Origin: an uncultured Gammaproteobacteria bacterium
Lineage (GTDB): Bacteria; Patescibacteriota; Microgenomatia; UBA8517
Direction of reading: 5' to 3'
DNA length: 64,000 bases
Assembly: GCA_964599625.1 (NCBI GenBank)
Contig: CAZRGC010000004.1
Location: 11,705-75,704, forward strand
Shown: positions 3,158 to 60,747 of the stretch, piece after piece
Layout of the letters: each line of letters starts with the position of its first letter
Position numbering within the stretch: the first letter of the stretch is position 1
Notes under the pieces: generated by a model
What the model was told of the DNA's origin: nothing
The model's input: only the letters and a program-made list of their open reading frames with translations
Databases searched by the model: none
Position numbers and translations under genes: made by a program

Positions 3158-4063
3158 TTATTTGGCAAGCATTTCAGCAACATTAAGGTTTATCATTTCA
3201 CTTTGGACAGGTGTAAAAATGGATCCCCAGGGTTGCCCGAAATGGTGCATCTCGCTCCACATTATGTTGTAACTGGGATTGTAGTACGAAAAAAGCGGCC
3301 GACCGTTACAACTTCCCACCTGATATACCGGAGGGTTTTCCACTTTTGCTACGGCAGCTTTCAAAATATCCGGCTGATCATCGGCAAACCAGAGTTCGTT
3401 GTTTGGAAGGGATTCGGGGTTGCGATATGCCGGGTAGCCGTCATCCAAACCAAAGATATGGCCCATTTCGTGGGATACAACAAGATCTATGTTTGCGGTG
3501 TTTGCGGATATTGTTATTTCGTAATCGTAGGCGCTTGCAAAGGCTTCGTTTGAGTTGATTACAAATACAATAACTGCATGATCGGCTCTCGAATCAATCC
3601 TTTCTTTGAACGCATAAAATTCGTCCCAGTTCAGAAAGTTTGCAGAGTACTGCAGTAGGTTGATGCCGATGGGAATAGATCTGTCTATATACCCAAAATC
3701 CAGGTTGACGTCACCAAAGTTGGCCTTGATACCTTTGGTCAGTTCGGAGATTGTCTTGTCCGCCGCGCCTTCAGAAAACCCGACGGGCGCAAAAATAATT
3801 GCAAAATTATTTTCGGAAAAGTTTTCCTGGCCGACAATATTGAAATCCATCGTCTTTACCTGTTCAAGGTCGCCCTGTGCAATTATTTTGACAGCTTCTG
3901 GCGGAATTGGTGTGCCTGCAGCCGACTGGTCAACAAGATTGGAACTCGGCGTGATTGCGCAATAGTCATAGAGCTCAGACAAAGTTCTTGTGGCCTGTGC
4001 AGACGGGGCACAGGCTGTGAGGAACAGTAATCCGGTAAGGAAGATTTGGGCAAATTTCTTCAT
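3158..4063 (-). CDS. Lipoprotein zinc metalloprotease (HEXXHXXGXXD metzincin-like)
   Basis: Signal peptide with lipobox LTAC. Motif VVSHEMGHIFGLDDGY (HEXXHXXGXXD, snapalysin/metzincin-like). Confidence 0.6.
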   Translation of the reverse strand: MKKFAQIFLTGLLFLTACAPSAQATRTLSELYDYCAITPSSNLVDQSAAGTPIPPEAVKIIAQGDLEQVKTMDFNIVGQENFSENNFAIIFAPVGFSEGAADKTISELTKGIKANFGDVNLDFGYIDRSIPIGINLLQYSANFLNWDEFYAFKERIDSRADHAVIVFVINSNEAFASAYDYEITISANTANIDLVVSHEMGHIFGLDDGYPAYRNPESLPNNELWFADDQPDILKAAVAKVENPPVYQVGSCNGRPLFSYYNPSYNIMWSEMHHFGQPWGSIFTPVQSEMINLNVAEMLAK

Positions 4064-19013: not shown

Positions 19014-19874
19014 ATGGCCACACAAACCATTGCACAGAAAGTGCAACCTTTTTTGTTCATTCCGAGCAAAAAGAGCAACAAACAAGAAGTACTGGCAACA
19101 GAGGCTCTTGTTGCTGACCTAAACATTAGGATTGGGGCGATTAATACACGGCTTATGGACAAGACAGCTTTTTTGCCAGTCGAAACAGGGCCCGAGGAGC
19201 TTCGTAAACTCAAACGAAATCTGGAAGATACCAGGGATGCAAATCTGAAGGTCCTTGATGAACAAAGATTTCGCCTCTCCAGGCATGAACGTCACATCAA
19301 AATGGTCAGAGCAGGGTACCCGAATCAACTCGACCTTTCGTTTCTGGCTTCCACCAAAAACTTTCCAATAGGTGGAATTTTTGGCTTGGGGAGAACTCAA
19401 GCTTGGCCTGCTTTTGGGGTTGTAAATGTTCAGAACGAGGCAAAAACTTTCCAGATCGAAGCACGGGCTACAAGTAGTCCCTACGGAACAGACTCGTATC
19501 AGACCTATTTACCCAAACCGATGGGTCTACAGTATTCAGCTACCATTAATACACTCATCAAACTTTCGAAAAAAAGCGACTATTCAGGTGTCTTTTTGTC
19601 AGCCAAAGTTGGCGGAATAATGCCCGACACAACGCGTGACAAAATTTTGGAAGCGCTTGAGAAAAAGATTTTTGACCAGGTGTATATTGTATTCGAAGTT
19701 TTTGACTGGGAGTTGAATGTTGTCAAGCCTGTACCGCAAGATGACCCTATTGTAATAGGTTGGTGTAATGACACCGAACAGGCGTTCGTGATTGATATCT
19801 ATAACCCCACAGGGTTGGAGCAATACGTCGCCGATCAGTTTGGTTTCACCGCAACACTTCCCGAAGATCTCTGA
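19014..19874 (+). CDS. Hypothetical protein (286 aa)
   Basis: ORF with no recognisable domain. Followed by an intrinsic terminator. Confidence 0.35.
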   Translation: MATQTIAQKVQPFLFIPSKKSNKQEVLATEALVADLNIRIGAINTRLMDKTAFLPVETGPEELRKLKRNLEDTRDANLKVLDEQRFRLSRHERHIKMVRAGYPNQLDLSFLASTKNFPIGGIFGLGRTQAWPAFGVVNVQNEAKTFQIEARATSSPYGTDSYQTYLPKPMGLQYSATINTLIKLSKKSDYSGVFLSAKVGGIMPDTTRDKILEALEKKIFDQVYIVFEVFDWELNVVKPVPQDDPIVIGWCNDTEQAFVIDIYNPTGLEQYVADQFGFTATLPEDL

Positions 19875-19966: not shown

Positions 19967-22192
19967 ATGGAAAGAGACTCGATTAAGTTGGACTACCCAA
20001 TGGCCGTTGGTGAGGCTAAAAAGCAGGAATTCAGGCATGGTGGAGTTTTGCTTCAATACCGAAGCAAAAACGGTTTGACCAGGCTTAAATCACCCTACGA
20101 ACTTGGTGTGGCTGATTTTGCTTCATTAGGGCTTGAAAACGCCCAGAAATTAAATAGCCACCTAAGAGAGACGAAATATCAAAAAACTATAGACATGGCT
20201 GAACGGGCAGCCAAACTTGTGGAGCAGGCTAAAACAGTTCATGTAGACGGTTTTTTGTTTCCCACAAAAGAAAAGCCTTTTACATGGGAACTCAGGCAAA
20301 AAATTGGTAAGGAAATTGAAAATCAAAAAAGACTACTCAAAAAACATGGTATTACAGAGGTAAAAGTTGGGGAAGAAATGGAGTTTGCCCTACCAGAAAA
20401 ACCTGTCGAAGGATTTTTTAAGTGGAGACAGGTTAAACGAACAATATTGGCAGGTTTAAGATGGGAGCTTTCAAAAGAAGAAGGCCCTACAAAAAGAAAA
20501 AGACTTAAGGAAAAAATCAGTCAGGTTTCCAAATTTAATGCCAGGGAGGTTCTAATGTATGACCTTATAGAACTTGATCCCAAAACAAGGGGAATTTTGG
20601 AACCACTATTTGGTGTTAGCAGAGACGGTGATGGTTACTACGACGCAAGAGGTGTGCTGGAGCTAAAATTCAAACCAACCGATCCAAATCAAGCAATAGA
20701 AAATAGAAAAACTGTACTTAAGACACTTTTTGACAAAGCGTTTGAATACGGACTGGAATTTCTGGATCAAGGACTTCCTGCATTTCATATAAATGTAAGC
20801 TTGTGGGACAAAAACGGGAATCTGTTTGCAGACAACCATCCTTCTTTTAATAGAAAAACCAAAAAAATCGTAGAAGGTGTAACTAGAGCTTTTTACGACT
20901 CTATGTTTGTACTAATGGGTAAATATGAAGCAAAGAGCGGAAATCTAAGAAAACTAAAGTTGGATGTAAATAGACTGGAAAGTCTGCGGTTTTCAAGCGA
21001 CAGGTTGGAGATAAGACCATCCGGGACCGACGGGATGCAAGACCCGGACATGATGCTTTCTGTTTTCCTTGCCGGGGCAATCTATGGATTGGAAAACAAA
21101 TGGAGAAATAATTTTGTAAGTGCCAAAAAAGTAAACAGTCCGACAGTTCACCACTCTCCAAGTATGGGTAAGGTTACTTCTCATGTAATCAATAACGCGA
21201 CAATAAAAGGTGATGGTTCATTGGATGTTGCAATGTTTTATATTAGGGAACACGACACAATTCTCGATTACGAACTGGGGATTACAGACGAGGAACCGGT
21301 AACCAATGTTCCTGGGTTTTTGAGAATGTTCTTCTCTTCGGATCACCTTCCTTATGTTGAAAAGTTTTTTAAACGTACAAAATATATTAAAAACAAAAAA
21401 GGTGAATACGAAATTATGTTTCCCGAAACCGCACCGGGCAAATACACTTTTTATTTACCATCACTCAATATGCAATACCTTCCAAAAGAATTGCGTGTAA
21501 GGATGATGAATGGGGAGGAGCTGCCCCGAAGTATCATGGAACAATACACACCGGTTGGAATGAGATTTCCCAGGATAGGTAAGTTTATAGATATCGATGT
21601 AAAAAGGTTGAAGAAAATTATTCAGCCCAGAGGCGTAAAATCAAAGTTTGTTGTCAGGTCCTACGACTACAACAAAAAAGCCTCCTCGGTTGTGCCAAGA
21701 AATTTTACAAATGAAGCCTGGGCAAGGTATCAACGTCTCAAATACAGCAGGACACTTGCGGGTACAATGAGCAAAGATGCCAAAAAGGAGTTTAAAAAGG
21801 CAGCCAGGAAGTTTGTTAAAAACGAAAGTGTTCCAAAAAAAGAACCCGTGACCCGAAAATCAGTGGCTTCCGCGTTTTTCCACAAAATAGCCGACCGTGA
21901 TTATTATCATCACAAAACACCTGCTTGGGTTTTGCAATATATTAAGGAAAGAGGAGAAGTGGAAGGCCAAGACTATTTGATGTCGAGTTTGCAGGTAAAA
22001 TTTGAAATGGTTAAAGACGGGGAGGCTTATGGTGTATTTTTAAAGAGAGTGCTTTATGGAATAAATAAGAGATATGTCAGAAAACACAAATATGTAGTTG
22101 ATGTTAAAGAGCACAACAACGGTTATTCCGACGTCACTGTGAGCATTAGCCCAAGACTTATGAAAGTTCTCAGAAAACTTGTCCAAAAGTAG
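19967..22192 (+). CDS. Glutamine synthetase-fold protein, type III-size (GlnN-like) carboxylate-amine ligase
   Basis: GEEMEFAL resembles the GS GPEPEFF motif. HINVSLWDKNGNLFAD aligns with GS HCHMSLSKNGVNLFAG. GNLRKL aligns with NSYKRL. RLEIRPSGTDGMQDPDMMLSVFLAGAIYGLENK aligns with [31 protein letters not shown]. 741 aa, similar to GS-III length. Confidence 0.5.
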   Translation: MERDSIKLDYPMAVGEAKKQEFRHGGVLLQYRSKNGLTRLKSPYELGVADFASLGLENAQKLNSHLRETKYQKTIDMAERAAKLVEQAKTVHVDGFLFPTKEKPFTWELRQKIGKEIENQKRLLKKHGITEVKVGEEMEFALPEKPVEGFFKWRQVKRTILAGLRWELSKEEGPTKRKRLKEKISQVSKFNAREVLMYDLIELDPKTRGILEPLFGVSRDGDGYYDARGVLELKFKPTDPNQAIENRKTVLKTLFDKAFEYGLEFLDQGLPAFHINVSLWDKNGNLFADNHPSFNRKTKKIVEGVTRAFYDSMFVLMGKYEAKSGNLRKLKLDVNRLESLRFSSDRLEIRPSGTDGMQDPDMMLSVFLAGAIYGLENKWRNNFVSAKKVNSPTVHHSPSMGKVTSHVINNATIKGDGSLDVAMFYIREHDTILDYELGITDEEPVTNVPGFLRMFFSSDHLPYVEKFFKRTKYIKNKKGEYEIMFPETAPGKYTFYLPSLNMQYLPKELRVRMMNGEELPRSIMEQYTPVGMRFPRIGKFIDIDVKRLKKIIQPRGVKSKFVVRSYDYNKKASSVVPRNFTNEAWARYQRLKYSRTLAGTMSKDAKKEFKKAARKFVKNESVPKKEPVTRKSVASAFFHKIADRDYYHHKTPAWVLQYIKERGEVEGQDYLMSSLQVKFEMVKDGEAYGVFLKRVLYGINKRYVRKHKYVVDVKEHNNGYSDVTVSISPRLMKVLRKLVQK

Positions 22193-36451: not shown

Positions 36452-36487
36452 TTTGAGTTTTTGACTTCAAAGGTTTACCATTCCTCT

Positions 36488-36700
36488 ATGAATAAAGAAA
36501 TTATCGAGCGTATCAAAGAGGGGATTAGGTTTGCTACCCAAAAACCAAGTGTGGCTGATTCAGTTTTAGATCCTATTCAGGAAAAGATCTTTGAAGTTGT
36601 GGACACAAAAGTCAAACCTATGTTAACTCGGCCTGGAGACAAATCTGGCAGAAGGTTTTTGTATGTTGACCCCAGAATCGATATTAAAGAAGTAGAGTAA
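36488..36700 (+). CDS. Small hypothetical protein (about 70 aa)
   Basis: Short ORF (open from 36461). No recognisable motif. Confidence 0.3.
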   Translation: MNKEIIERIKEGIRFATQKPSVADSVLDPIQEKIFEVVDTKVKPMLTRPGDKSGRRFLYVDPRIDIKEVE

Positions 36701-37396
36701 TTATTGGATGGTTTTGGTGAGCTCAGTTACTTTGTCCAAGTCTCCGTCTACAATTAGTTCTAATTTTCCCCATGATTTGCCCAATCTATGATCTGTAACC
36801 CTGTCTTGGGGGTAGTTGTATGTTCTAATCTTCTCGCTTCTCATCCCGCGTCCTATGGCGGATCTGTAGCCTGCAATTGTCCTCAACTTTTCTTCTTCCT
36901 CCCGTTCCCAGAGCTTAGATCTCAAAAGTGATAGTGCAATTTGTCTGTTTTGCTCCTGAAATCGCTCTTCGCGTGCAGTTACAACGATTCCGGTGGGTTT
37001 GTGGGTAAGCCTAACTGCTGTTGCGACCTTGTTTACATTCTGACCCCCATGCCCGCCACCAGTTGTGAATTGCCACTCAAGATCTTGCTGGTTGATGCTT
37101 ACTTCTGCCTCTTTTACTTCCGGGAGAACAACTACTGTGGCTGTGGAGGTGTGGATTCTTCCTCTTTTTTCGGTGTCGGGGACTCTTTGCACTCTGTGGA
37201 CTCCTGATTCGTTTTTGAGGACACCAAAGACACCCACGCCTGATATCCTGACGGTCTTTTCATCAAGTTGGATAAGTTTCCAGTTCTTTTTGAGCGCGTA
37301 GCGCATATACATTCTAAGAAGATCAGCCCCCCAAAGCTTGGCTTCGTCGCCACCTGTGGCTCCGCGGATTTCCAAATATACGGTAGAATTTTCCAT
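36701..37396 (-). CDS. Class I peptide chain release factor (RF1-like) lacking N-terminal domain 1
   Basis: GGQ motif ([12 protein letters not shown]). Codon-reader region [20 protein letters not shown] aligns with RF1 [20 protein letters not shown]. Starts at the domain-2 equivalent ([13 protein letters not shown]). The gene begins 15 nt after the rpmE stop, with no in-frame upstream extension. Confidence 0.8.
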
Positions 37397-37411
37397 GGGG
37401 GGTGGCCGGTG

Positions 37412-37720
37412 TTAGTTTTGGTTTCTAAGTTCTGCCAAAGATTCCGGTCTTGCAGCCTCTTCCTGAAGTTTTTTCTCTCTTTTTGCTTTCATTCTGTCGG
37501 CTTTGCTCATCACTTTCTTGGCACCCGCCAGTTTGGCACGGAAAGCGTCAACTCTACCTGCTGTATCTACAAACTTCATTTGCCCTGTGTAGAAAGGATG
37601 GCAGCTGTAGCAGATATCTACGCTGATTTGGGGAACTGCAGCACCCACGCTAAATGTGTTCCCGCATGCGCAGGTTACCTTTGCGTCGTTGTGCCAAGTT
37701 GGGTGGATTTTTGCTTTCAT
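37412..37720 (-). CDS. rpmE: 50S ribosomal protein L31 (Zn-ribbon type) with Lys/Arg-rich C-terminal extension
   Basis: MKAKIHP...CACGNTF...CYSCHPFYTG. A roughly 35-aa basic tail follows. Confidence 0.9.
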   Translation of the reverse strand: MKAKIHPTWHNDAKVTCACGNTFSVGAAVPQISVDICYSCHPFYTGQMKFVDTAGRVDAFRAKLAGAKKVMSKADRMKAKREKKLQEEAARPESLAELRNQN

Positions 37721-37726
37721 GAAGGC

Positions 37727-38647
37727 TCAATTATATCGTTTTTTCCTAAACTCCGCAATAAACACTCCGGAGAAAGTGACCAGGCATGCACCAATCGTGA
37801 CAGGGGTGATCTTTTCTCCCAAAAGTGCAACTGCCAAAATTGCCGAAAATATGGGATAAAGATAGGAAAAAATAGCTGTTTCGGAAAGTTCGATGGTCCT
37901 TTGAGCCCTGTTTACCAATGTATAGGCAAGCGTGCCTGATAAAAACGCCATATAAAAGACGCCCACATGATCCAAAATATCAGCAGATGTGAGCATGCTC
38001 ACAACGACCTCGGGTCTATTAATTATTAGAACCACAGGTGTGAGAGTGATAAAACCTATCAAGAATGAGTAATTAGCCAAAAATAGTGGCGATACATGTT
38101 CGCGCATCAGTTTTTTCGACAAAAGTCCTGCGGTTGCGCCACATATCAAAGAAAGAAAAACCAGGACATTTCCAAATAATTGATGAAAGAAAGTTGAACC
38201 GCCACCTTGAGAAAAAAGAGGCTCAAGTGCTATTGCTGTGGCGCCAAGGAATGTAATCAATGATCCAATTTTCATGCGTTTTGTAAGATGTTCTTTGAGA
38301 AAGAAAAAGCCAAATATCATCATAAGAATGGGGCCAAACAGAGATATCAAACTCATATCTAAAAGGGAGGTCTCGTTGGTGCCCCAAAACAAGAATCCCA
38401 GTGCAGCTGTTGAGTTCAAAAAGGCATAAAGTGTTGTGGTCAAAAATATTTTTAAGTTTTTGGGGCGGCCTGCCTTGAATTTAAGAAGCAAAAAAATACC
38501 AAGAACGGAGGAAAGAAAAAATCTGTAAAGCAGAAATACTTCTGGGGTTAAATCTTTCAGAGTGAGCTTGATAACTGGGCCGGCTACACCCCAGATTACA
38601 GCTACAATTAACAGTTCAAAATATGCTCTCAGACGGGCAGGATTCAT
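37727..38647 (-). CDS. EamA/DMT-superfamily transporter
   Basis: 10 TM with two EamA-like repeats. Confidence 0.75.
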   Translation of the reverse strand: MNPARLRAYFELLIVAVIWGVAGPVIKLTLKDLTPEVFLLYRFFLSSVLGIFLLLKFKAGRPKNLKIFLTTTLYAFLNSTAALGFLFWGTNETSLLDMSLISLFGPILMMIFGFFFLKEHLTKRMKIGSLITFLGATAIALEPLFSQGGGSTFFHQLFGNVLVFLSLICGATAGLLSKKLMREHVSPLFLANYSFLIGFITLTPVVLIINRPEVVVSMLTSADILDHVGVFYMAFLSGTLAYTLVNRAQRTIELSETAIFSYLYPIFSAILAVALLGEKITPVTIGACLVTFSGVFIAEFRKKRYN

Positions 38648-38658
38648 GTTTGTATTGT

Positions 38659-39861
38659 TTATTTAATTAAAGAAACCATGTTTTCAAAACTTGTGTTAAT
38701 TTGCTCACCAGTTGTAAGGTTTTTAAGAATCACTGAACTGTTGCCAATTTCATTGGGACCAATTATTACAACATATGGGATTTCCTTTTTGTTTGCGTAT
38801 TTGAGTTGTTTGTCTAACTTTGTGCTTTCGGGGTAAAGCTCAGTGTTAATATTTGCACTCCTTAAATTTTTGGCAACTTCCAAGCTTTTTTCTGCTACCT
38901 CTTCCGAAAATATAGTTACAAGGACTTTGGTGTTTTTTTCTGTGGGTATTAAGTTCAATTGATCTGCAGCCTCGACCGTTCTGTCAAAGCCGAATGCGAC
39001 ACCGGTTCCGGGAATATCAAAACCGGTTAAACGTTTCATCATTCCGTCATACCGCTCGCCACCACCAACAGAACCCACTGTGTAATCCTCAATTACGATT
39101 TCCCAGATTGGTCCTTGTGAATAAGAAAATGACCTGGCTAGGGTTGGTTCAAACCTGTAAAACTCACTGCCAAAGTCTGATTTTTCAAGGTATTGGGTTA
39201 TTTTATTAATGGTTTCGTCGGGTTTAATATTCAAAACTTGATCGAAATATTTTTCCGCAGCTGCTTTTTCTATGCCCTTGTTTATCATGTCGTTAAGCAC
39301 GCCTTCTTTCCCAATCTTTTTAAGCTTGTCGATGGCAACTATTGCTTCGTATGGGATATCTTTCATTAGATCACGGTTGTTGAATATAACTACGGGTTTT
39401 TTGAAGCCAATTGTTAAGTATGTATCCAAATTCTCTGCTATCACTTCAGCGTCTGCTGAGGGGGTTTTGACGCCAAAAATGTCGACATCAAATTGCGTAA
39501 ACTCCCGATATCTTCCTCGTTGAGTGTTTTCTGCCCTGAAAACTGATTGGCATTGAAATCTTTTAAACGGAAAAACTAGGCTATTTTGATTAGCTGCAAC
39601 ATATCTGCAGGTGGGGACAGTTTGGTCATACCTAAGCATAACTTCGCGGCCGCCATTGTCGGTAAATTTATAAAATAGTTTTTCATCTTCCCCGATTTCA
39701 CCCTTGAAAAGGGAATAGGGCTCAAGTGTGGGTGTTTCGATTTGCTCAAAACCCCATCTTTGTGCCACTTTGATCATCTTGTTTTTTACCCATAAACGTT
39801 TAGCCGTATCAGTTGGCAAAAAATCACGAAAACCTTTTAATGTCTGTAGTTTTTGGTTCAT
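38659..39861 (-). CDS. hisS: Histidine--tRNA ligase
   Basis: Class II motifs (GFRDFLP..., FQCQSVFRAENTQRGRYREFTQFDVDIFG, GGGERYDGM). C-terminal anticodon-binding domain. Confidence 0.95.
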   Translation of the reverse strand: MNQKLQTLKGFRDFLPTDTAKRLWVKNKMIKVAQRWGFEQIETPTLEPYSLFKGEIGEDEKLFYKFTDNGGREVMLRYDQTVPTCRYVAANQNSLVFPFKRFQCQSVFRAENTQRGRYREFTQFDVDIFGVKTPSADAEVIAENLDTYLTIGFKKPVVIFNNRDLMKDIPYEAIVAIDKLKKIGKEGVLNDMINKGIEKAAAEKYFDQVLNIKPDETINKITQYLEKSDFGSEFYRFEPTLARSFSYSQGPIWEIVIEDYTVGSVGGGERYDGMMKRLTGFDIPGTGVAFGFDRTVEAADQLNLIPTEKNTKVLVTIFSEEVAEKSLEVAKNLRSANINTELYPESTKLDKQLKYANKKEIPYVVIIGPNEIGNSSVILKNLTTGEQINTSFENMVSLIK

Positions 39862-39888
39862 TTTTTTAATATTAACATTATTGGTAGT

Positions 39889-40542
39889 TTAAATGTTGCC
39901 GCCATTATATTTAACAAAAAGCAATCTTTTGTTGTTCTCGGGGTCCGGGGGTAAACTTTCACCTCCTAGGACGAGTTCCATGCCCATGTTTCTGGCAGTG
40001 AACGCCATTGTGCTTGTGCGTGATGTTCTCAAAAGAAGCGGCAATCCAAGATCTATTCCTTTTTGGGCAATCATCCTTGTTATTTGGCCTCCGATGCCTT
40101 TTCCTTGTAACTCTATCTGGACCCCGACCTCCGATACGTAAAAATAATTTATATTTGGACGTATTACACTCACTATAAACTCACGGTTTTCTTCATTATA
40201 TTTTTTAAATGCAAAATCTTCACCGGAAAGTATGTAGCCCCAACCAAAACCTAATATTTTTTCATTCTCCTTGAAAATATAGCCGGTAGAACCTTCACCC
40301 GAAATTTCTTTAAGAATATATTCTGACGTCTGATTGATTGGGTAGGCTTCTTCCAGAACCACACCATTGCATTCCTCACACGGACCATTTGTTCCGGGAG
40401 GGAAGTTGTCGCCATAAAATTTGTCTTTAATGGGACATCTGCTTACCTCGTTCCATTCCGGACCAGCAAACACAGCCGCATACGTTCCTGCGGTTTTACG
40501 TATATCCTCGTTGTTTAATTTGTTTAGTATTTCTATGCTCAT
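39889..40542 (-). CDS. GNAT-family N-acetyltransferase
   Basis: Motif A QGKGIGGQITRMIAQKGIDLGLP. SD AAGGAGG 8 nt upstream. Confidence 0.55.
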   Translation of the reverse strand: MSIEILNKLNNEDIRKTAGTYAAVFAGPEWNEVSRCPIKDKFYGDNFPPGTNGPCEECNGVVLEEAYPINQTSEYILKEISGEGSTGYIFKENEKILGFGWGYILSGEDFAFKKYNEENREFIVSVIRPNINYFYVSEVGVQIELQGKGIGGQITRMIAQKGIDLGLPLLLRTSRTSTMAFTARNMGMELVLGGESLPPDPENNKRLLFVKYNGGNI

Positions 40543-40566
40543 TTTTGTTTACCTCCTTTGTTTTCC

Positions 40567-40622
40567 ACCAAAAAACCCTCGTTCACACGTCGAAAGAAAA
40601 ATCTTTCAACAAGGAACGAGGG
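40567..40622 (-). terminator. Intrinsic terminator (distal of two tandem terminators ending the upstream RNA locus)
   Basis: Stem CCCTCGTTC (40576-40584) pairs with GAACGAGGG (40614-40622). On the minus strand it is followed by U6. Also T-rich on the plus side. Confidence 0.6.
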
Positions 40623-40642
40623 TCTTTTTGTGGCTTTATAAC

Positions 40643-40667
40643 CAAAAAAAAGGACCTCCCGCGGTCC
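40643..40667 (-). terminator. Intrinsic terminator (GGACC-GCGGGA-GGUCC + U8) on minus strand
   Basis: Minus-strand hairpin GGACC/GGTCC (40652-40667) followed by a U8 run (plus-strand A8 at 40643-40650). Confidence 0.7.
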
Positions 40668-41527
40668 CATCCTTATTTCTTTGAGATATTCCTTCTCAAA
40701 GCTCTTAGTCCATCTCTACTTTTGCGGTGACAATGGTTGGAATCTTTTTACGCTTTTCCCTGCGTCAGGTATTTTGACCTGCTCCTCGCTTCGCGTGACT
40801 GAAGCTCAAGCGGATTTATTAAAATGTTATTGTAGTCTACAACTTATTTCTAACTTGTCAAATATTAGGCAAAGAAATACCCAGTTTCTTAAATGTCCGA
40901 GGACGAAACTGGGTTTTCTGACTTCCAAGGTTTTTACACTGCTAGTAGCAGAGCTCGGTTAACCTCGGACTCAGTACAGAGCATCTGATTCGGCACGTCT
41001 ACCGAACCGCTCTGGTTAAGGGATAGTGGGAAGGCCCGGGTTTTTTGTTTTACCTTCAGGTGGAGCGTCCGCAATCTGCGAATGCTGATCTGCACCCAAA
41101 GCAAAATCCCTTATTGCCTTCCAATTGTTGTGCCCGCGCGCGGCACTGCTAAAGAGCAACAACACCCTGACCAGTCAAGAAAAGGGCCACTTCCAGAAGC
41201 GTCACTACAGCGATGCTGCAGTTGGGTGTGACTCCCGGAGGGACCAAGTTCGCGGTTGAAATTCGCGACACTCCCTTTTCTATCCTAAGGCGGAAGAATA
41301 TACGTCCCGTGTGTCCATCGTAGCAGATGGGGGACCAAATCGGCTTAGCCGCACTGTGTGCAGGCGTTGGCCACAACTTGAGTTGAATGTGATTGGATCC
41401 GTACGGATCGAAATTTTCGGCCTAACTTACAAGCCGAAACCGGCGACCAAACAAGTGATCGGCGTTTTGGGCCTGTAAGTGCGCTGACGTGTAAATGTCT
41501 ATGTGCTTACCGGAATATTATTCCAGT
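40668..41527 (-). ncRNA. Unassigned structured RNA locus (about 860 nt); contains RNase P RNA-like conserved elements
   Basis: The minus-strand promoter TTGACA-17-TATAGT (see 41534..41562) predicts a TSS near 41527. Two tandem intrinsic terminators lie at 40567-40667. No credible protein ORF. Contains GC-rich hairpins and motifs resembling RNase P CR-I (GGAAGUGGCCC...CAGGGUG), CR-IV (AAGGCAAUAAGGG) and CR-V (ACAAAAAACCCGGGCCUU). Confidence 0.45.
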
Positions 41528-41533
41528 GTTGAC

Positions 41534-41562
41534 ACTATAGCATAAGAAAGAAGATTTGTCAA
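41534..41562 (-). promoter_or_regulatory. Near-consensus sigma70 promoter (TTGACA-17nt-TATAGT) on minus strand
   Basis: Plus-strand TGTCAA at 41557-41562 and ACTATA at 41534-41539 read as TTGACA and TATAGT on the minus strand with a 17-nt spacer. Confidence 0.65.
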
Positions 41563-41649
41563 GTATTATAGGCTACTAGAGCTTTGCTCATGGGATATTT
41601 ATATATAGTTTCTATTTTTGGGGTAATTCTAGCCTCTATTTTAACTTTA

Positions 41650-42120
41650 GAAAAAGAAAGAGACCTGGTCCTTTTGAATTTTTGGATGCGTTTTACGGCA
41701 TTTATTATTCTTGGGACCAGGTCTCGGGATTCGGGATAGGGGAGATGTTGTTTCTTGGGATTCGGGTTGGGCGTAGGCTGAAGGTCGCAAGTGACCAACA
41801 AAATACCGAGATGGCAGCCTAGCTTCCGAGGTTCCTTTGAAATCTCCCTTTCGTGCTTGATCTAAATGTGATGTAAATCGAGCTGAAAGCTTCCACACTT
41901 TGTCCCTGCCGCTTTTGTTGTCGGGCAATCCGAAGCGAAGGCCAGTGGCCTTGTCCGGTGGTTGGGACGATCGGGGAAGCTAAAGTGACCGGCTATCCAG
42001 CCAGTCTGGTATTGGTACTTGCGGACCTAAAGCTGCCGGCCAAAAATGGTCGGCAAGTTGAGATCCGTAAGCACACGGCTCTTTCTACACAATCAATATG
42101 TCAGGTGCAAGCTATCGCGA
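41650..42120 (-). ncRNA. Unassigned structured RNA locus (about 470 nt)
   Basis: Minus-strand promoter TTGACA-18-TATATT (42127-42156). Terminated by a long 12-bp stem (GAGACCUGGUCC...GGACCAGGUCUC) followed by UUUCUUUUUC. No ORF. Contains the direct repeat GGGAUUCGGG x2 on the complementary strand and several GC-rich helices. Confidence 0.4.
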
Positions 42121-42126
42121 AGGTAG

Positions 42127-42156
42127 TAATATACCACAGTCATTTTTGACTTGTCA
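42127..42156 (-). promoter_or_regulatory. Near-consensus sigma70 promoter (TTGACA-18nt-TATATT) on minus strand
   Basis: Plus-strand TGTCAA at 42151-42156 and AATATA at 42127-42132, with an 18-nt spacer. Confidence 0.6.
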
Positions 42157-42175
42157 ACACTATGTTGTGAAGCTA

Positions 42176-45565: not shown

Positions 45566-46483
45566 TTATTTTTTTAGCTCGGGAAACAACTTTTCAAGTT
45601 CAAAAATTCTAAAATTTGTAACCGCATACTCAATTTCATTCTTGTCTCCATATTCCATTTGTTTTCCAGCTGCCAATTCTCTTGACCTCGTAGAAAGCAA
45701 AAGATGTTCTGTATAAATTTGTACAGGCACTTGAGGATTTCGGTTTGGGCTCTGTTGCAGCGATAACGAAAATTCCTTGCGAGCTCTTTCTCCCATTTTA
45801 TTCCAAACTGTTGCTGGAAGATGTGGATTTTCTGGTGATGTGTGTTCCCATACAAAGAATGTTTTCTTGTCTTTTTCTGCTGTAACATACCCGCTTAGTT
45901 TAAAAGCAGAATGGGGGATCAGTATGGTATATCTGTACTCCATTGATCTATTTGGGAGTCCGGGAAAGCTTGGTTTGTAGTCAGCACTCTCCTCCAAAAT
46001 AACCGGAGGTCTGTAGGAATCAACTCTTAAAACCTGATTGGACAAAGAGGTAAACATTGATTTGCCCACGTGCTTGTAAATTTCAGGCAATTCTTCTTCC
46101 ATCCCGCGTTCCAAAGCGGCATTGAACCCTTCGGTAGTGAGATTAAGTTTCTCGCGAAAAGAAACTCCTTCCATCCCTCGTTTTCTGACTCTACCATCGG
46201 CAAACTCCTGTCTGTCTTCTTTTAGAACGTAGAAATTGCCGTCCAAATCTCCCGCAAACACAAAAACTCCAACTTGCTCTACCTCGCGGATTAATTTACC
46301 TTCAGTGGTGTCAACCAGCCTGGAATCTCCATCCTGGAGTTCTTTGAGAAGTTTACCAATTGGTTTTGACCCAGGAGTAACACCCCAAAGTTTGTGGTTA
46401 ATTCCGTGCCCATCAAGCATAGCTGAAAGTCCCTGGAGGGTAATCTCTGAAGTAACTGCTTCCGCCTCTTTTGGTCGTGGCAT
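45566..46483 (-). CDS. Hypothetical protein (305 aa)
   Basis: ORF with no convincing domain match. Confidence 0.35.
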   Translation of the reverse strand: MPRPKEAEAVTSEITLQGLSAMLDGHGINHKLWGVTPGSKPIGKLLKELQDGDSRLVDTTEGKLIREVEQVGVFVFAGDLDGNFYVLKEDRQEFADGRVRKRGMEGVSFREKLNLTTEGFNAALERGMEEELPEIYKHVGKSMFTSLSNQVLRVDSYRPPVILEESADYKPSFPGLPNRSMEYRYTILIPHSAFKLSGYVTAEKDKKTFFVWEHTSPENPHLPATVWNKMGERARKEFSLSLQQSPNRNPQVPVQIYTEHLLLSTRSRELAAGKQMEYGDKNEIEYAVTNFRIFELEKLFPELKK

Positions 46484-57627: not shown

Positions 57628-59313
57628 ATGTCGGAGAGTTCGGGGTGGTCTTCATATGACGGTTTACCAGAAACCGCAAGAGATAAAGCTGAGTTTGACT
57701 CTGACAAAGCAAACCTTGCAACGGAGGATTTTAGAAAGCGTTTTGACGAGAAGATGGGATTGAGATACAAAAACCTTCGTGACAAAGATCAAGCTTTTAT
57801 AGATGAAGTATACAGCGCTTTTGGTTCTGGTGACCCGACAAAAGTAACTGAGATTTTAGACAACACCGACGGAGACAGGCATGACTATGTGTTATGGATT
57901 GGTGAGTGCAAAGAGGAATTCGATACTTTAGAAAAAACTGTGGATTTCATGGATGCGAGATATGCGGAGTATGTTAGGGAGGATCTGGAAACGGAAGTGC
58001 TCGAAGTAGTATCCCGAATAGACTTTGATAAAGCTTTAAGTAATATTTTGAGAAAAGGAAATATATACGACCTGGAAAGTTTTATGAAAAACGTTGCCTA
58101 TGTAAGAGAAGTCCAGCATATGGTTGTGACGGAGGATGGTGCACAAAATTTAGGACTTTTTGAGCTCACAGTTTTTAGAGACAGATTGCGGGCTGCGAGA
58201 GAGGATATGAAAGTCGGTGATTTTTTGAGTCACGGTTCAGACTTGGAATATGATTTGGAAGGAATCGCAGATGAGCCAAATATGGAAATGAAAGCTGTGC
58301 GGTTGCAGTCAGAAGTTGTCAGTTTGAAACAGGCTGTCAAAGCATATGCACAGAAGGCAAATTTGTTTGTTTGGGGTTCAGGGTCTTTTTCGTTCGACCA
58401 AGAAGAGTGTTTTGACTCATTGTTTAACGCACTTTCTAATGCTTATAAACCGGAGAACTATGTCAGTGACTATGCTGTAAAAAAACCTGATCCAAGATTT
58501 TTTGAATCTGCCGAAAAGTGGTTGATCAAAAAAAGAAGGCAGTTTGAACGGATTGGAGTTTTGCCGCCAACTGATTCGTCAAGGTATGAAAACCAAAAAG
58601 AGCGGGAATCTAACGACAAGGAAGCAATAATTGCCGGTATTGTTGTAAAAGGTTTTGACAATGACCCATATTTAACAAACGAAAGCGTCAGACTTACCTT
58701 GAAGTCTATAGTACCTGGGGAAACATTGAAAAAAGTTAAATCAATAGTGTTTTTAGAAGGCAAGGCCAATACAAGTCCCAGGTACGCGGGACGTCCAAAA
58801 GAAGAAACTGACATGGTTGCCGGAACGTGTTTTTACGAGTTTGACGACAATGAAGGAGAGCTTGTGGGGGCTGCAATCGAAATTTATGGTGAGGACGAGT
58901 CGGGAAAACTTGAAACTCACCAAAATAGACATTCAATATGGCATGAAATTGGACACGTTGCACATCAGAGTATGAGCGCTTCCGAGATTGAGGATTGGCA
59001 AAGAATCAGAACAGATGAGGTTTTTAGGATAACAACATATGTTCCCAGAGAGAAAGTCACAAAACCTCTGGAAGACTTTACGGAGACTTTTACATATTTC
59101 ATTGATCAGCCGACACTTTTGAAAGTCATCGCACCAGAACGCTATAAATTTATGAAGAAGTTTTTCGAAGACAGGTCTACAGATGCTGAGAAAACAGTTC
59201 TTAATAATTATCTTGCAATTACAGAAGTATTTCAGGAGGTTCAATGGAAGAGTCAAAACCTCTCACACGCGGAAATTGCTGAGGTGTGGAGGGAAACTGT
59301 TCCCCAAGACTAA
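57628..59313 (+). CDS. Large hypothetical protein with C-terminal HEXXH zinc-peptidase-like motif
   Basis: SIWHEIGHVAHQSM (HEIGH) with downstream Glu residues (EIEDW). Acidic N-terminal half. 561 aa. Confidence 0.4.
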   Translation: MSESSGWSSYDGLPETARDKAEFDSDKANLATEDFRKRFDEKMGLRYKNLRDKDQAFIDEVYSAFGSGDPTKVTEILDNTDGDRHDYVLWIGECKEEFDTLEKTVDFMDARYAEYVREDLETEVLEVVSRIDFDKALSNILRKGNIYDLESFMKNVAYVREVQHMVVTEDGAQNLGLFELTVFRDRLRAAREDMKVGDFLSHGSDLEYDLEGIADEPNMEMKAVRLQSEVVSLKQAVKAYAQKANLFVWGSGSFSFDQEECFDSLFNALSNAYKPENYVSDYAVKKPDPRFFESAEKWLIKKRRQFERIGVLPPTDSSRYENQKERESNDKEAIIAGIVVKGFDNDPYLTNESVRLTLKSIVPGETLKKVKSIVFLEGKANTSPRYAGRPKEETDMVAGTCFYEFDDNEGELVGAAIEIYGEDESGKLETHQNRHSIWHEIGHVAHQSMSASEIEDWQRIRTDEVFRITTYVPREKVTKPLEDFTETFTYFIDQPTLLKVIAPERYKFMKKFFEDRSTDAEKTVLNNYLAITEVFQEVQWKSQNLSHAEIAEVWRETVPQD

Positions 59314-59316
59314 CAA

Positions 59317-60747
59317 CTACAACCTCTCACCCACTGCGAGCGATATCTTTCGTCCCAGTGTAAACACCCTTTCTGTAATTTCCGAAATTCTTTCTTCTAT
59401 ACTACCTTCTGTTATTTCACTTTCAATTTTTTGAAGATCATCAAAGGCAGACTCGACATCGCTTTCGGTCATTTTTCTTGCAATACGGTCCGAGATCTCA
59501 AAGAGCCCAATCTGTTCCCCGCTGAATGACCGCAAATAAGGAATGATCACAAAGTGCTCAAGAAATTTCCTTCTAAACTGTTCTGTTGGAAATTCCTGTC
59601 CGTTAATGATTCTTTGTCGTATTTCGTGTCCCAAACTAAATGTTACTGACGGAGACATAAATTGTTTATGTAAATTTGCATCGGGGTTTTGATTTTTAAC
59701 AATTTTATAAAGATTTGTGTGTTGTTTGCCGTATATGACAGCCACCTTTTTACCCTGCCATTCCTTTTGGTTTTTTTCTATAAGATCCAAAAGCTCGACC
59801 GCGACAGTGTGGTCCCTGTCTATCATGGAAATTGATTCCCATTTCTGAAGTCCCAATAAATCAATATAAGCAGATTTGAAAAAGCCCAATGTGGCATGAT
59901 ATGTGGCCTCCTTTTCCATATCCTCGGCTATCCTGCTAGCTTTTGCACCCTCACTTTCCAAAGAAACATCAGCAAGATGAAGTTCTTTTCCGTTGAGGAT
60001 TGCCATGCTGATCAATCTTTTGATAAATGCGGACCCGTTTGGGTATTTGTTCATGAAGTATTCTTCAACTTTGCGGCTGGTTTGTGGATCACTTGCTACT
60101 GCGTTGTTTCGGGATATATCCACCGCCTCACTTTTGCCGGCTTCGGTTATGCCAACAGCTTCCAAAATAATTATGTCAGCATCCTTAACCTTTTCCCATA
60201 CGGGTTCTGCGTCGCGTTCTGAATGTCTTGTGAAGACAAAAGTGATGTCTGGTTTGGGCGGCTCCTTTACCTCTCCCATGGCAAAAATATTATTTCGCCT
60301 TTCTGTTGATAAAATTTTCCAGGGTTTCAGGTGTTCCTCAAGACGTTCGAATACAACTCCTTTTGCTTCTTCTGATGTTTTTTTCTTGGCTCCAATCAGG
60401 GTTGGTTCGTGGGTAAGTACTTTCTTGTCGTCTTCTGTGCGTTCTCCCAAGTCACCATCATCTAGTATGGCGAAGCCCTCCTCGAGTGAACTTTTTATCC
60501 ATTTAAAATATACTTTTAGTTTCGCGGTTCTGTATTCGGGTGTCAGAATTCCCCATCTGCTTTCGATATGCCTTAATATTTTGGTTTCGGCTTCGGATTG
60601 GATTTGTTCTTCGGTTTTTTCTGGTACCTTGGGAGCATCATCTTCTGCTTGTTTCTTTTGGTGGTGAGAAATTTTACGGTGCCTGGTTTCTTCACCAAAA
60701 TCACCCCATTTTTCTTCGAAATCGTCTAGTTCTCCGGTCATAACCAT
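59317..60747 (-). CDS. Hypothetical protein, paralogue of the 61313-62299 gene (TraB/GumN/PrgY-like family, tentative)
   Basis: ITFVFTRHSERDAEPVWEKVKDADIIILEAVG resembles the TraB-family LVGTAHVS...PDAVAVELD N-terminal pattern. Shares at least three collinear blocks with the 328-aa paralogue. Confidence 0.4.
   Translation of the reverse strand: MVMTGELDDFEEKWGDFGEETRHRKISHHQKKQAEDDAPKVPEKTEEQIQSEAETKILRHIESRWGILTPEYRTAKLKVYFKWIKSSLEEGFAILDDGDLGERTEDDKKVLTHEPTLIGAKKKTSEEAKGVVFERLEEHLKPWKILSTERRNNIFAMGEVKEPPKPDITFVFTRHSERDAEPVWEKVKDADIIILEAVGITEAGKSEAVDISRNNAVASDPQTSRKVEEYFMNKYPNGSAFIKRLISMAILNGKELHLADVSLESEGAKASRIAEDMEKEATYHATLGFFKSAYIDLLGLQKWESISMIDRDHTVAVELLDLIEKNQKEWQGKKVAVIYGKQHTNLYKIVKNQNPDANLHKQFMSPSVTFSLGHEIRQRIINGQEFPTEQFRRKFLEHFVIIPYLRSFSGEQIGLFEISDRIARKMTESDVESAFDDLQKIESEITEGSIEERISEITERVFTLGRKISLAVGERL

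Follow-up and report, generated by a model that had tools for sequence, protein, structure and literature searches.

Canonical bacterial release factor 1 (RF1) begins with a helical domain, domain 1, through which the E. coli protein touches the uL11/bL12 stalk and is functionally linked to RF3; to our knowledge, essentially every primary RF1 or RF2 described so far has this domain. The 64-kb stretch of DNA analyzed here (the window) encodes a release factor (RF) homologue of 231 amino acids (aa) in which this domain appears to be missing. The locus therefore raises the question of whether the short protein is real and, if so, whether it is the primary RF1 of the organism or an accessory factor. 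The gene and its upstream neighbor are arranged as follows.

36701..37396, minus strand: probable prfA orthologue (start, ATG; stop, TAA), whose 231-aa RF1 product has domains 2, 3, and 4 but no domain 1; based on the open reading frame (ORF) list, Pfam, NCBIfam, and BLASTP
37397..37411, minus strand: C-rich spacer CACCGGCCACCCCCC, 15 nt, from the rpmE stop to the RF start
37412..37720, minus strand: rpmE (ribosomal protein L31, 102 aa), the upstream neighbor of prfA conserved in CPR; based on Pfam and NCBIfam

The sequence-only reading had placed the start of the protein at the equivalent of RF1 domain 2, and profile and pairwise comparisons agree. PCRF (PF03462) was matched only at positions 99 to 194 of the 194-position Pfam model, and the RF-1 domain (PF00472) was complete (positions 2 to 116 of 116; 119.9 bits). 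The NCBIfam prfA models aligned from positions 103 (103 to 336 of 347) and 111 (111 to 344 of 361), and BLASTP aligned residues 5 to 225 of the protein with residues 110 to 342 of E. coli RF1 at 45% identity (the E. coli sequence used is identical to PDB 5j30 over 360 residues). What is missing is the N-terminal helical domain 1, to which the first half of PF03462 corresponds; the first residue of the protein is equivalent to E. coli residue ~106 to 110.

The same reading held that the gene begins 15 nt after the L31 stop with no in-frame upstream extension and that domain 1 is truly absent rather than mis-called; both points stand. The rpmE product is complete (PF01197, Ribosomal_L31, positions 1 to 64 of 65; NF000612 at 89 bits), and the RF ATG, which shares its frame, lies five codons past the rpmE TAA. 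Because the complete rpmE ends so shortly before the RF ATG, there is no room for an upstream domain 1 segment. A frameshift hiding domain 1 and a hidden coding segment were both ruled out by the same complete rpmE and 15-nt gap. The spacer (37397..37411) contains no Shine-Dalgarno-like motif. The 102-aa L31 consists of a Zn-ribbon-type core followed by a Lys/Glu-rich C-terminal tail of ~35 aa. We considered this tail as a remnant of, or substitute for, domain 1 and rejected the idea: an L31 of ~100 aa with the same tail precedes prfA in many CPR loci, and since these include loci with full-length RF1 genes, the tail is a trait of CPR that has nothing to do with domain 1 loss.

The identical protein, with the same rpmE neighbor, was found in at least four independent SRA assemblies, and in all 20 of the closest species-level relatives the ATG lies 7 to 20 codons ahead of the motif at the domain 1/2 boundary. 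The protein database held at least 119 further nonredundant homologues of 230 to 250 aa at 81 to 94% identity, which, where named, are called either "peptide chain release factor 1" or [quoted passage not shown] RF1 without domain 1 is a real, natural minimal form and not an error.

Relatives were surveyed with one genome per species, and 80 loci (~1.3 Mb) were retrieved, covering 10 kb on either side of the RF gene. The 20 closest loci (L001 to L020; 59 to 92% identity), from Woesebacteria, Shapirobacteria, Gottesmanbacteria, and other Patescibacteria, all encode forms of 230 to 250 aa. Amesbacteria KKU58406.1 (256 aa), from groundwater genomes of 2015, is of the same domain-1-less type, and sequences of this type have been public since that year. 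Immediately upstream of the RF gene is rpmE in 21 of 21 truncated loci (window counted), and in CPR loci it is also immediately upstream of most full-length (~355 to 370 aa) and of shortened (~305 to 318 aa) RF1 genes. Loci from Dehalococcoidia, which are not CPR, do not have the rpmE-prfA arrangement. Because rpmE adjoins RF1 genes of every length in CPR, the truncated gene sits at the ancestral prfA position. A simple neighbor-joining tree of the shared region placed the window protein and L001 to L020 on one branch, sister to a 307-aa Curtissbacteria RF1. The absence of domain 1 is a clade trait, and the uncultivated organism itself belongs to the Microgenomates branch of the CPR/Patescibacteria.

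RF1 lengths among the relatives are graded, from ~355 aa through ~310 aa to ~232 aa. RF1s of 303 to 318 aa lacking the first 40 to 50 residues occur in Saccharimonadales, WWE3, Curtissbacteria, and others, and domain 1 is partly deleted in loci L021, L023, L043, L047, L058, L059, L072, and L079. One 303-aa protein (P0123) has a short domain 1 and has already lost a loop of domain 2 that is also missing from the truncated clade (see below). Two other proteins keep that loop: a 241-aa Yanofskybacteria protein (L063) has no domain 1 and branches elsewhere in the neighbor-joining tree, which likely reflects an independent complete loss of the domain, and a 242-aa protein (P0149) starts directly at domain 2 and may represent a further independent loss. 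In another relative (P0157; 259 aa), a Cys-rich N-terminal segment (CRLCGCG) stands in the place of domain 1.

Comparison with the RF1, RF2, and PrfH families, which the sequence-only reading had proposed, gave an RF1-type protein: NCBIfam scores were 293 to 301 bits for prfA, 193 for prfB, 67 for PrfH, and 46 for ArfB. The curated prfA cutoffs were nonetheless missed (293.1 versus 423.25 bits for TIGR00019; 301.1 versus 400 for NF001859) because the ~110 residues of domain 1 are missing. Classification as a PrfH- or ArfB-type rescue factor, raised as a possible objection, was ruled against. The PrfH cutoff was missed (67.1 bits versus 166.65 for TIGR03072), with an alignment over the GGQ domain only, as was that of ArfB (46.4 bits versus 100 for NF006718), and the protein has 231 aa with domains 2/4, whereas an ArfB has ~140 aa. 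No gene for an RtcB-family ligase is adjacent to the RF gene among its neighbors in the window.

The best PDB matches were the RF1 proteins of Thermotoga, Streptococcus, Thermus, and E. coli (E values of 3e-68 to 1e-54). In the comparison with ribosome-bound RF1 suggested earlier, a confident structure model built from a deep alignment (pLDDT 86.8) superposed on the open RF1 of 70S termination complexes (TMq 0.83 to 0.84; root mean square deviation, ~3 Å) and had the same fold. The GGDE, PxT, RIHT, GGQ, and switch-loop elements are all conserved. A model from a shallow alignment took the compact form of the free factor (TM 0.74 to 1rq0). In PDB models 6osk, 6orl, 6gwt, and 5o2r, RF1 is present only from residue ~97 to 110 to residue 351 to 356, and domain 1 has been described as disordered in several cryo-electron microscopy (cryo-EM) models of ribosome-bound E. 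coli RF1 (PMC6076264). The natural protein is thus roughly equivalent to the ordered portion of ribosome-bound RF1 in such models.

The functional elements of the protein are located as follows.

37343..37354, minus strand: GGDE (residues 15 to 18), tip of helix alpha5, from sequence conservation
37259..37264, minus strand: D45-E46, the junction left by the 10-residue domain 2 deletion specific to the clade, from alignment (E. coli RF1 residues 151 to 160, ASEGEHGGYK)
37172..37180, minus strand: PDT tripeptide (residues 73 to 75), the RF1-type PxT "anticodon," with P73 and T75 invariant
37040..37048, minus strand: GGQ catalytic motif (residues 117 to 119), invariant
36815..36862, minus strand: switch-loop region (residues 179 to 194), from alignment

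The retention of GGQ and the codon-reader loop, reported earlier from the sequence, is supported by a comparison of 87 diverse RF1s. Invariant across all of them are G15, G16, E18, Q70, P73, T75, E76, R80, T83, S84, and G117-G118-Q119, and D17 is invariant within the truncated family. The RF1-type readers are all present (G15-G16-D17-E18, Q70, P73-D74-T75, and I81-H82-T83); from established RF1-ribosome structures, we take the GGDE tip of helix alpha5 to be the reader of U1 of the stop codon. Mean column identity in the truncated family is 83%. Judging by this pattern of conservation, strong purifying selection acts on exactly the functional parts of the protein.

Two changes besides the loss of domain 1 distinguish the truncated proteins. 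The switch region has one residue fewer than that of canonical RF1 and reads GRGMR where the latter has GxGDR, and the 10-residue domain 2 loop is missing from every member of the truncated clade. Within this loop, Glu155/His156 of E. coli RF1 contact the anticodon stem-loop of the P-site tRNA (Graf et al. 2018, PMC6076264). The domain 2 deletion, the switch-region change, the clade-wide spread, and the intermediates all go beyond the sequence-only reading.

One claim of that reading did not hold, namely, that Asp in the reader tripeptide is unusual. No position of the decoding loop varies more than the middle residue of PxT; among 82 sequences this residue is V in 19, A in 14, T in 13, E in 13, D in 9, K in 6, S in 5, and N, G, and L in 1 each, and inside the truncated clade it is V in 7, T in 6, A in 3, D in 2, E in 2, and N in 1. 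Full-length RF1s with PDT are found as well, in Dehalococcoidia and Patescibacteria. Free variation at this position rules out PDT as a special decoding feature, and by the same comparison its Asp is no meaningful peculiarity.

All three stop codons are in use. TAA ends 36, TAG 17, and TGA 10 of the 63 ORFs in the window, where coding density is 89% under the standard code; for the 309 ORFs of the relatives' loci, the corresponding counts are 198, 52, and 59. Since TGA serves as a stop codon, RF2 activity must exist, and it is presumably supplied by a prfB gene elsewhere in the genome. Searches of all ORFs with phmmer found one RF1 per locus, and neither RF2 nor a second RF homologue, in the window and the 80 loci (~1.3 Mb). 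More broadly, no prfB, prfC, or prmC turned up in the window, in the ~8 kb added on its left side, or in the 20 relatives within 10 kb of the RF gene in either direction. The left extension, which also contained no second RF or other RF-related gene, was obtained through look-ups of edge proteins, and the right edge gave no new sequence. A Pfam scan of ten window ORFs picked by matching length contained no prfC or prmC, and jackhmmer, with PrmC of L064 as the query, found no PrmC in the window or within 10 kb in L001 to L020. In Dehalococcoidia and several CPR, the same search placed the PrmC gene immediately after prfA. prfC is nonessential and is reported not to have been identified in small genomes (PMC1586002), which is consistent with the sequence-only suggestion that prfC may be missing here.

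Taken together, these data indicate that the protein is, with good probability, the organism's orthologous primary RF1 (the prfA product) minus all of domain 1. The explanation that it is an artifact or a decaying gene, whether by miscalling of the start, frameshifting, misassembly, or survival as a pseudogene remnant, would fit a protein shorter than the family norm and below curated cutoffs, but it has a negligible chance of being correct given the 15-nt gap after a complete rpmE, the identical sequence in at least four independent assemblies, the same architecture and conserved ATG in each of 20 species-level relatives, the ≥119 further homologues of similar length, and the invariance of the catalytic and decoding residues. 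An accessory paralogue is another possibility. The known natural class-I RF homologues without domain 1, PrfH and ArfB/ICT1, are accessory factors (PMC1586002; PMC6514570), and the sequence sampled comprises 64 kb plus flanks and the relatives' loci; a second, full-length prfA could lie elsewhere in the genome. Against a rescue or specialized RF like PrfH/RFH or ArfB stand the scores far below both family cutoffs (67 versus 167 and 46 versus 100 bits), the lack of an adjacent RtcB gene and of an ArfB-like basic tail, and the stop-codon-reading residues, which are those of RF1 and invariant. Moreover, the gene occupies the rpmE-prfA position of other CPR, and no second RF homologue is present in the window or in the loci of the 20 relatives. 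We therefore consider an accessory role, with full-length RF1 encoded elsewhere, to be quite improbable.

A further possibility is that the protein is a release factor whose codon specificity has been altered or broadened, e.g., to UGA, through the Asp of PDT or a clade-invariant Lys-Arg (TEKRG), permitting the loss of RF2. TGA ends 10/63 ORFs in the window and 59/309 in relatives, yet no RF2 gene occurs in the sequences examined; the EKRG that follows PxT is clade specific; and RF specificity is reported to shift when charges near the tripeptide are changed (Uno et al. 2002, as it appears in the reference list of PMC1586002). However, the middle residue of PxT is free to vary in the clade (V, T, A, D, E, N), so no specific selection is apparent, the RF1-specific readers P73, T75, Q70, and T83 are all unchanged, and RF2 is not expected within the 2 to 8% of a genome that was sampled. 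Such a change in specificity thus seems very unlikely, and a primary RF1 reduced to domains 2 to 4 is the reading that we carry forward.

How would a primary RF1 of this kind act? Its codon specificity, its activity, and its independence from the stalk and RF3 are inferred from the sequence. The protein would enter the A site at UAA or UAG, where the GGDE helix tip would read U1, and PxT, Gln70, and Ile81-His82-Thr83 would read positions 2 and 3. Opening via the switch loop would then place GGQ in the peptidyl-transferase center, leading to hydrolysis of peptidyl-tRNA. Recruitment would proceed without assistance from the stalk and turnover without dependence on RF3, and exit would be either spontaneous or upon the action of recycling factors. 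The domain 2 loop that touches the P-site tRNA anticodon stem is also deleted in the clade.

Previous work bears on such a mechanism. Stop codon recognition and hydrolysis are reported not to require domain 1; engineered truncations are reported to keep codon-specific release, and truncated RF1 to be functional in living cells (Mora et al. 2003, cited in PMC1586002 and PMC6076264). The same reports ascribe to the domain a role in the link to RF3 and, via bL12/uL11, in the binding of RF1. Because domain 1 is reported to serve these two functions, stalk-free binding and RF3-free exit would be required of the truncated factor. Counting against the primary RF1 reading, E. coli RF1 has been reported to be inactive on ribosomes lacking L11 (a reviewer's remark in PMC1586002), and an RF1 without the L11-facing domain would therefore imply compensating changes. 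A more far-reaching version, which we regard as doubtful, is that a large Microgenomates branch terminates translation without ever engaging the GTPase-associated center, with both class-I factors lacking domain 1, RF3 absent, and the loop loss representing a re-tuned, factor-independent dissociation of the RF. At its extreme, one factor would serve all three stop codons. If this were so, the clade would offer a minimal termination system in nature, on which the purpose of domain 1 and RF3 could be tested.

In comparison with canonical RF1 (prfA; TIGR00019/NF001859), the window RF shares domains 2, 3, and 4 at 45 to 52% identity to RF1s of E. coli, Thermotoga, and others, as well as PxT, GGQ, the alpha5 tip, RIHT, the switch loop, the rpmE-prfA position seen in other CPR, and a modeled fold matching ribosome-bound RF1; it differs in lacking the ~105-aa domain 1 and the 10-residue P-site tRNA loop and in a switch region that is shorter by one residue. 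The E. coli RF1/RF2 versions engineered without their N terminus (Mora et al. 2003) likewise consist of domains 2 to 4 only, but these are laboratory constructs, tested on ribosomes that evolved with domain 1 and giving slow growth, whereas the window form is natural, fixed, and conserved in its clade. PrfH/RFH (TIGR03072) also lacks domain 1 and keeps a codon-recognition-like domain and GGQ (PMC1586002, PMC6514570). It has, however, a divergent decoding loop, an RtcB partner, and a sporadic distribution, while the window RF has an RF1-type loop, no RtcB, and vertical inheritance across the clade. ArfB/ICT1/C12orf65 share a GGQ domain without domain 1 but have no codon recognition domain, carry a basic C-terminal tail, and act independently of stop codons; in the window RF, domains 2/4 are intact.

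Natural domain-1-less relatives (PrfH, ArfB) and engineered truncations are thus already known. Full-text literature searches and a review of release factor evolution (PMC6514570) yielded no description of a domain-1-less primary RF1 in CPR, and, going by the literature searched, a domain-1-less orthologue of primary RF1 fixed across a bacterial clade has not been described. The laboratory truncations showed that release chemistry can do without domain 1 but that growth suffers when it is lost. A clade with a fixed domain-1-less RF1, along with intermediates in sister lineages, is therefore a natural experiment on what domain 1 contributes, and it shows the extent to which the termination machinery can shrink. 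The protein is also an annotation trap. Because it falls below the curated thresholds, prfA may be scored as missing in these genomes, and with a subthreshold prfA score and a "release factor-like" name, pipelines and marker gene sets may make the same call.

The window neighbors of the RF gene are rpmE, an EamA transporter gene, hisS, a small ORF, and an S41 peptidase gene. A 79-aa ORF (36461..36700, plus strand) converges on the RF gene, and because the stop codons of the two abut with zero intergenic bases, there is no space for a terminator between them. It has no Pfam match; independent assemblies likewise have a called gene at this position, of 70 to 77 aa. Elsewhere in the window, six long ORFs had no Pfam match at an E value of ≤1e-4, i.e., 19967..22192 (741 aa), 57628..59313 (561 aa), 59317..60747 (476 aa), 19014..19874 (286 aa), 3158..4063 (301 aa), and 45566..46483 (305 aa); long ORFs without a Pfam match are common in CPR genomes.

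Upstream of rpmE lie further genes and several candidate regulatory or structured RNA elements.

37727..40542, minus strand: tightly spaced genes (217-aa ORF, hisS, and EamA transporter) with gaps of 6 to 27 nt, from the ORF list
40647..40861, minus strand: promoter-like site (40861 to 40834) and reduced T-box-like leader (40819 to 40647) with a terminator hairpin and U-run; tentative
~41535 to 40880, minus strand: putative RNA unit 2, ~650 nt, with promoter TTGACA-17-TATAGT at 41562 to 41534
~42110 to 41640, minus strand: putative RNA unit 1, ~480 nt, with promoter TTGACA-18-TATATT at 42157 to 42128

No strong promoter-like site was found between the genes of the string 217-aa ORF-hisS-EamA-rpmE-prfA, and the five genes probably form one transcription unit. 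The T-box-like leader, at the head of this string, reached 27 bits, where the gathering score is 93 (E value of 2.5e-4 on a 321-nt stretch); it has a AGGAUGGGACCGCG box and a terminator hairpin with U8, and its stem I is drastically shortened. It is possible that the RF gene is cotranscribed with a T-box-controlled hisS operon.

The leader lies in a 1.6-kb, ORF-free, GC-rich region (40543..42175) that also appears to hold the two promoter-to-terminator units, arranged back to back. Over 1.3 kb of it (40870..42160, minus strand), GC content reaches 54% against a background of ~40%. Rfam gave no match for either unit even at an E value of ≤1, and a 21-mer metagenome scan for nearby noncoding RNA returned only a chance match in an unrelated gene. 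The promoters of both units match the sigma70-like consensus at 11 of 12 positions each and are the two best in a 6-kb region, and a hairpin with a U-run behind it closes each unit. Conservation of both units in a related species (L001, 4919..6175) is 73 to 74% identity, with long invariant blocks, in a comparison of two divergent sequences only. The minus strand of 40880-41500 has a fold z-score of -4.4, and on the single-sequence minimum free energy structure there were 14 and 20 two-sided compensatory changes, compared with 3 to 11 in slid controls. The two units are probably large structured RNAs of an as yet unclassified kind. A 65-nt hairpin of unit 1 also occurs in two Woesebacteria loci (L005 and L009).
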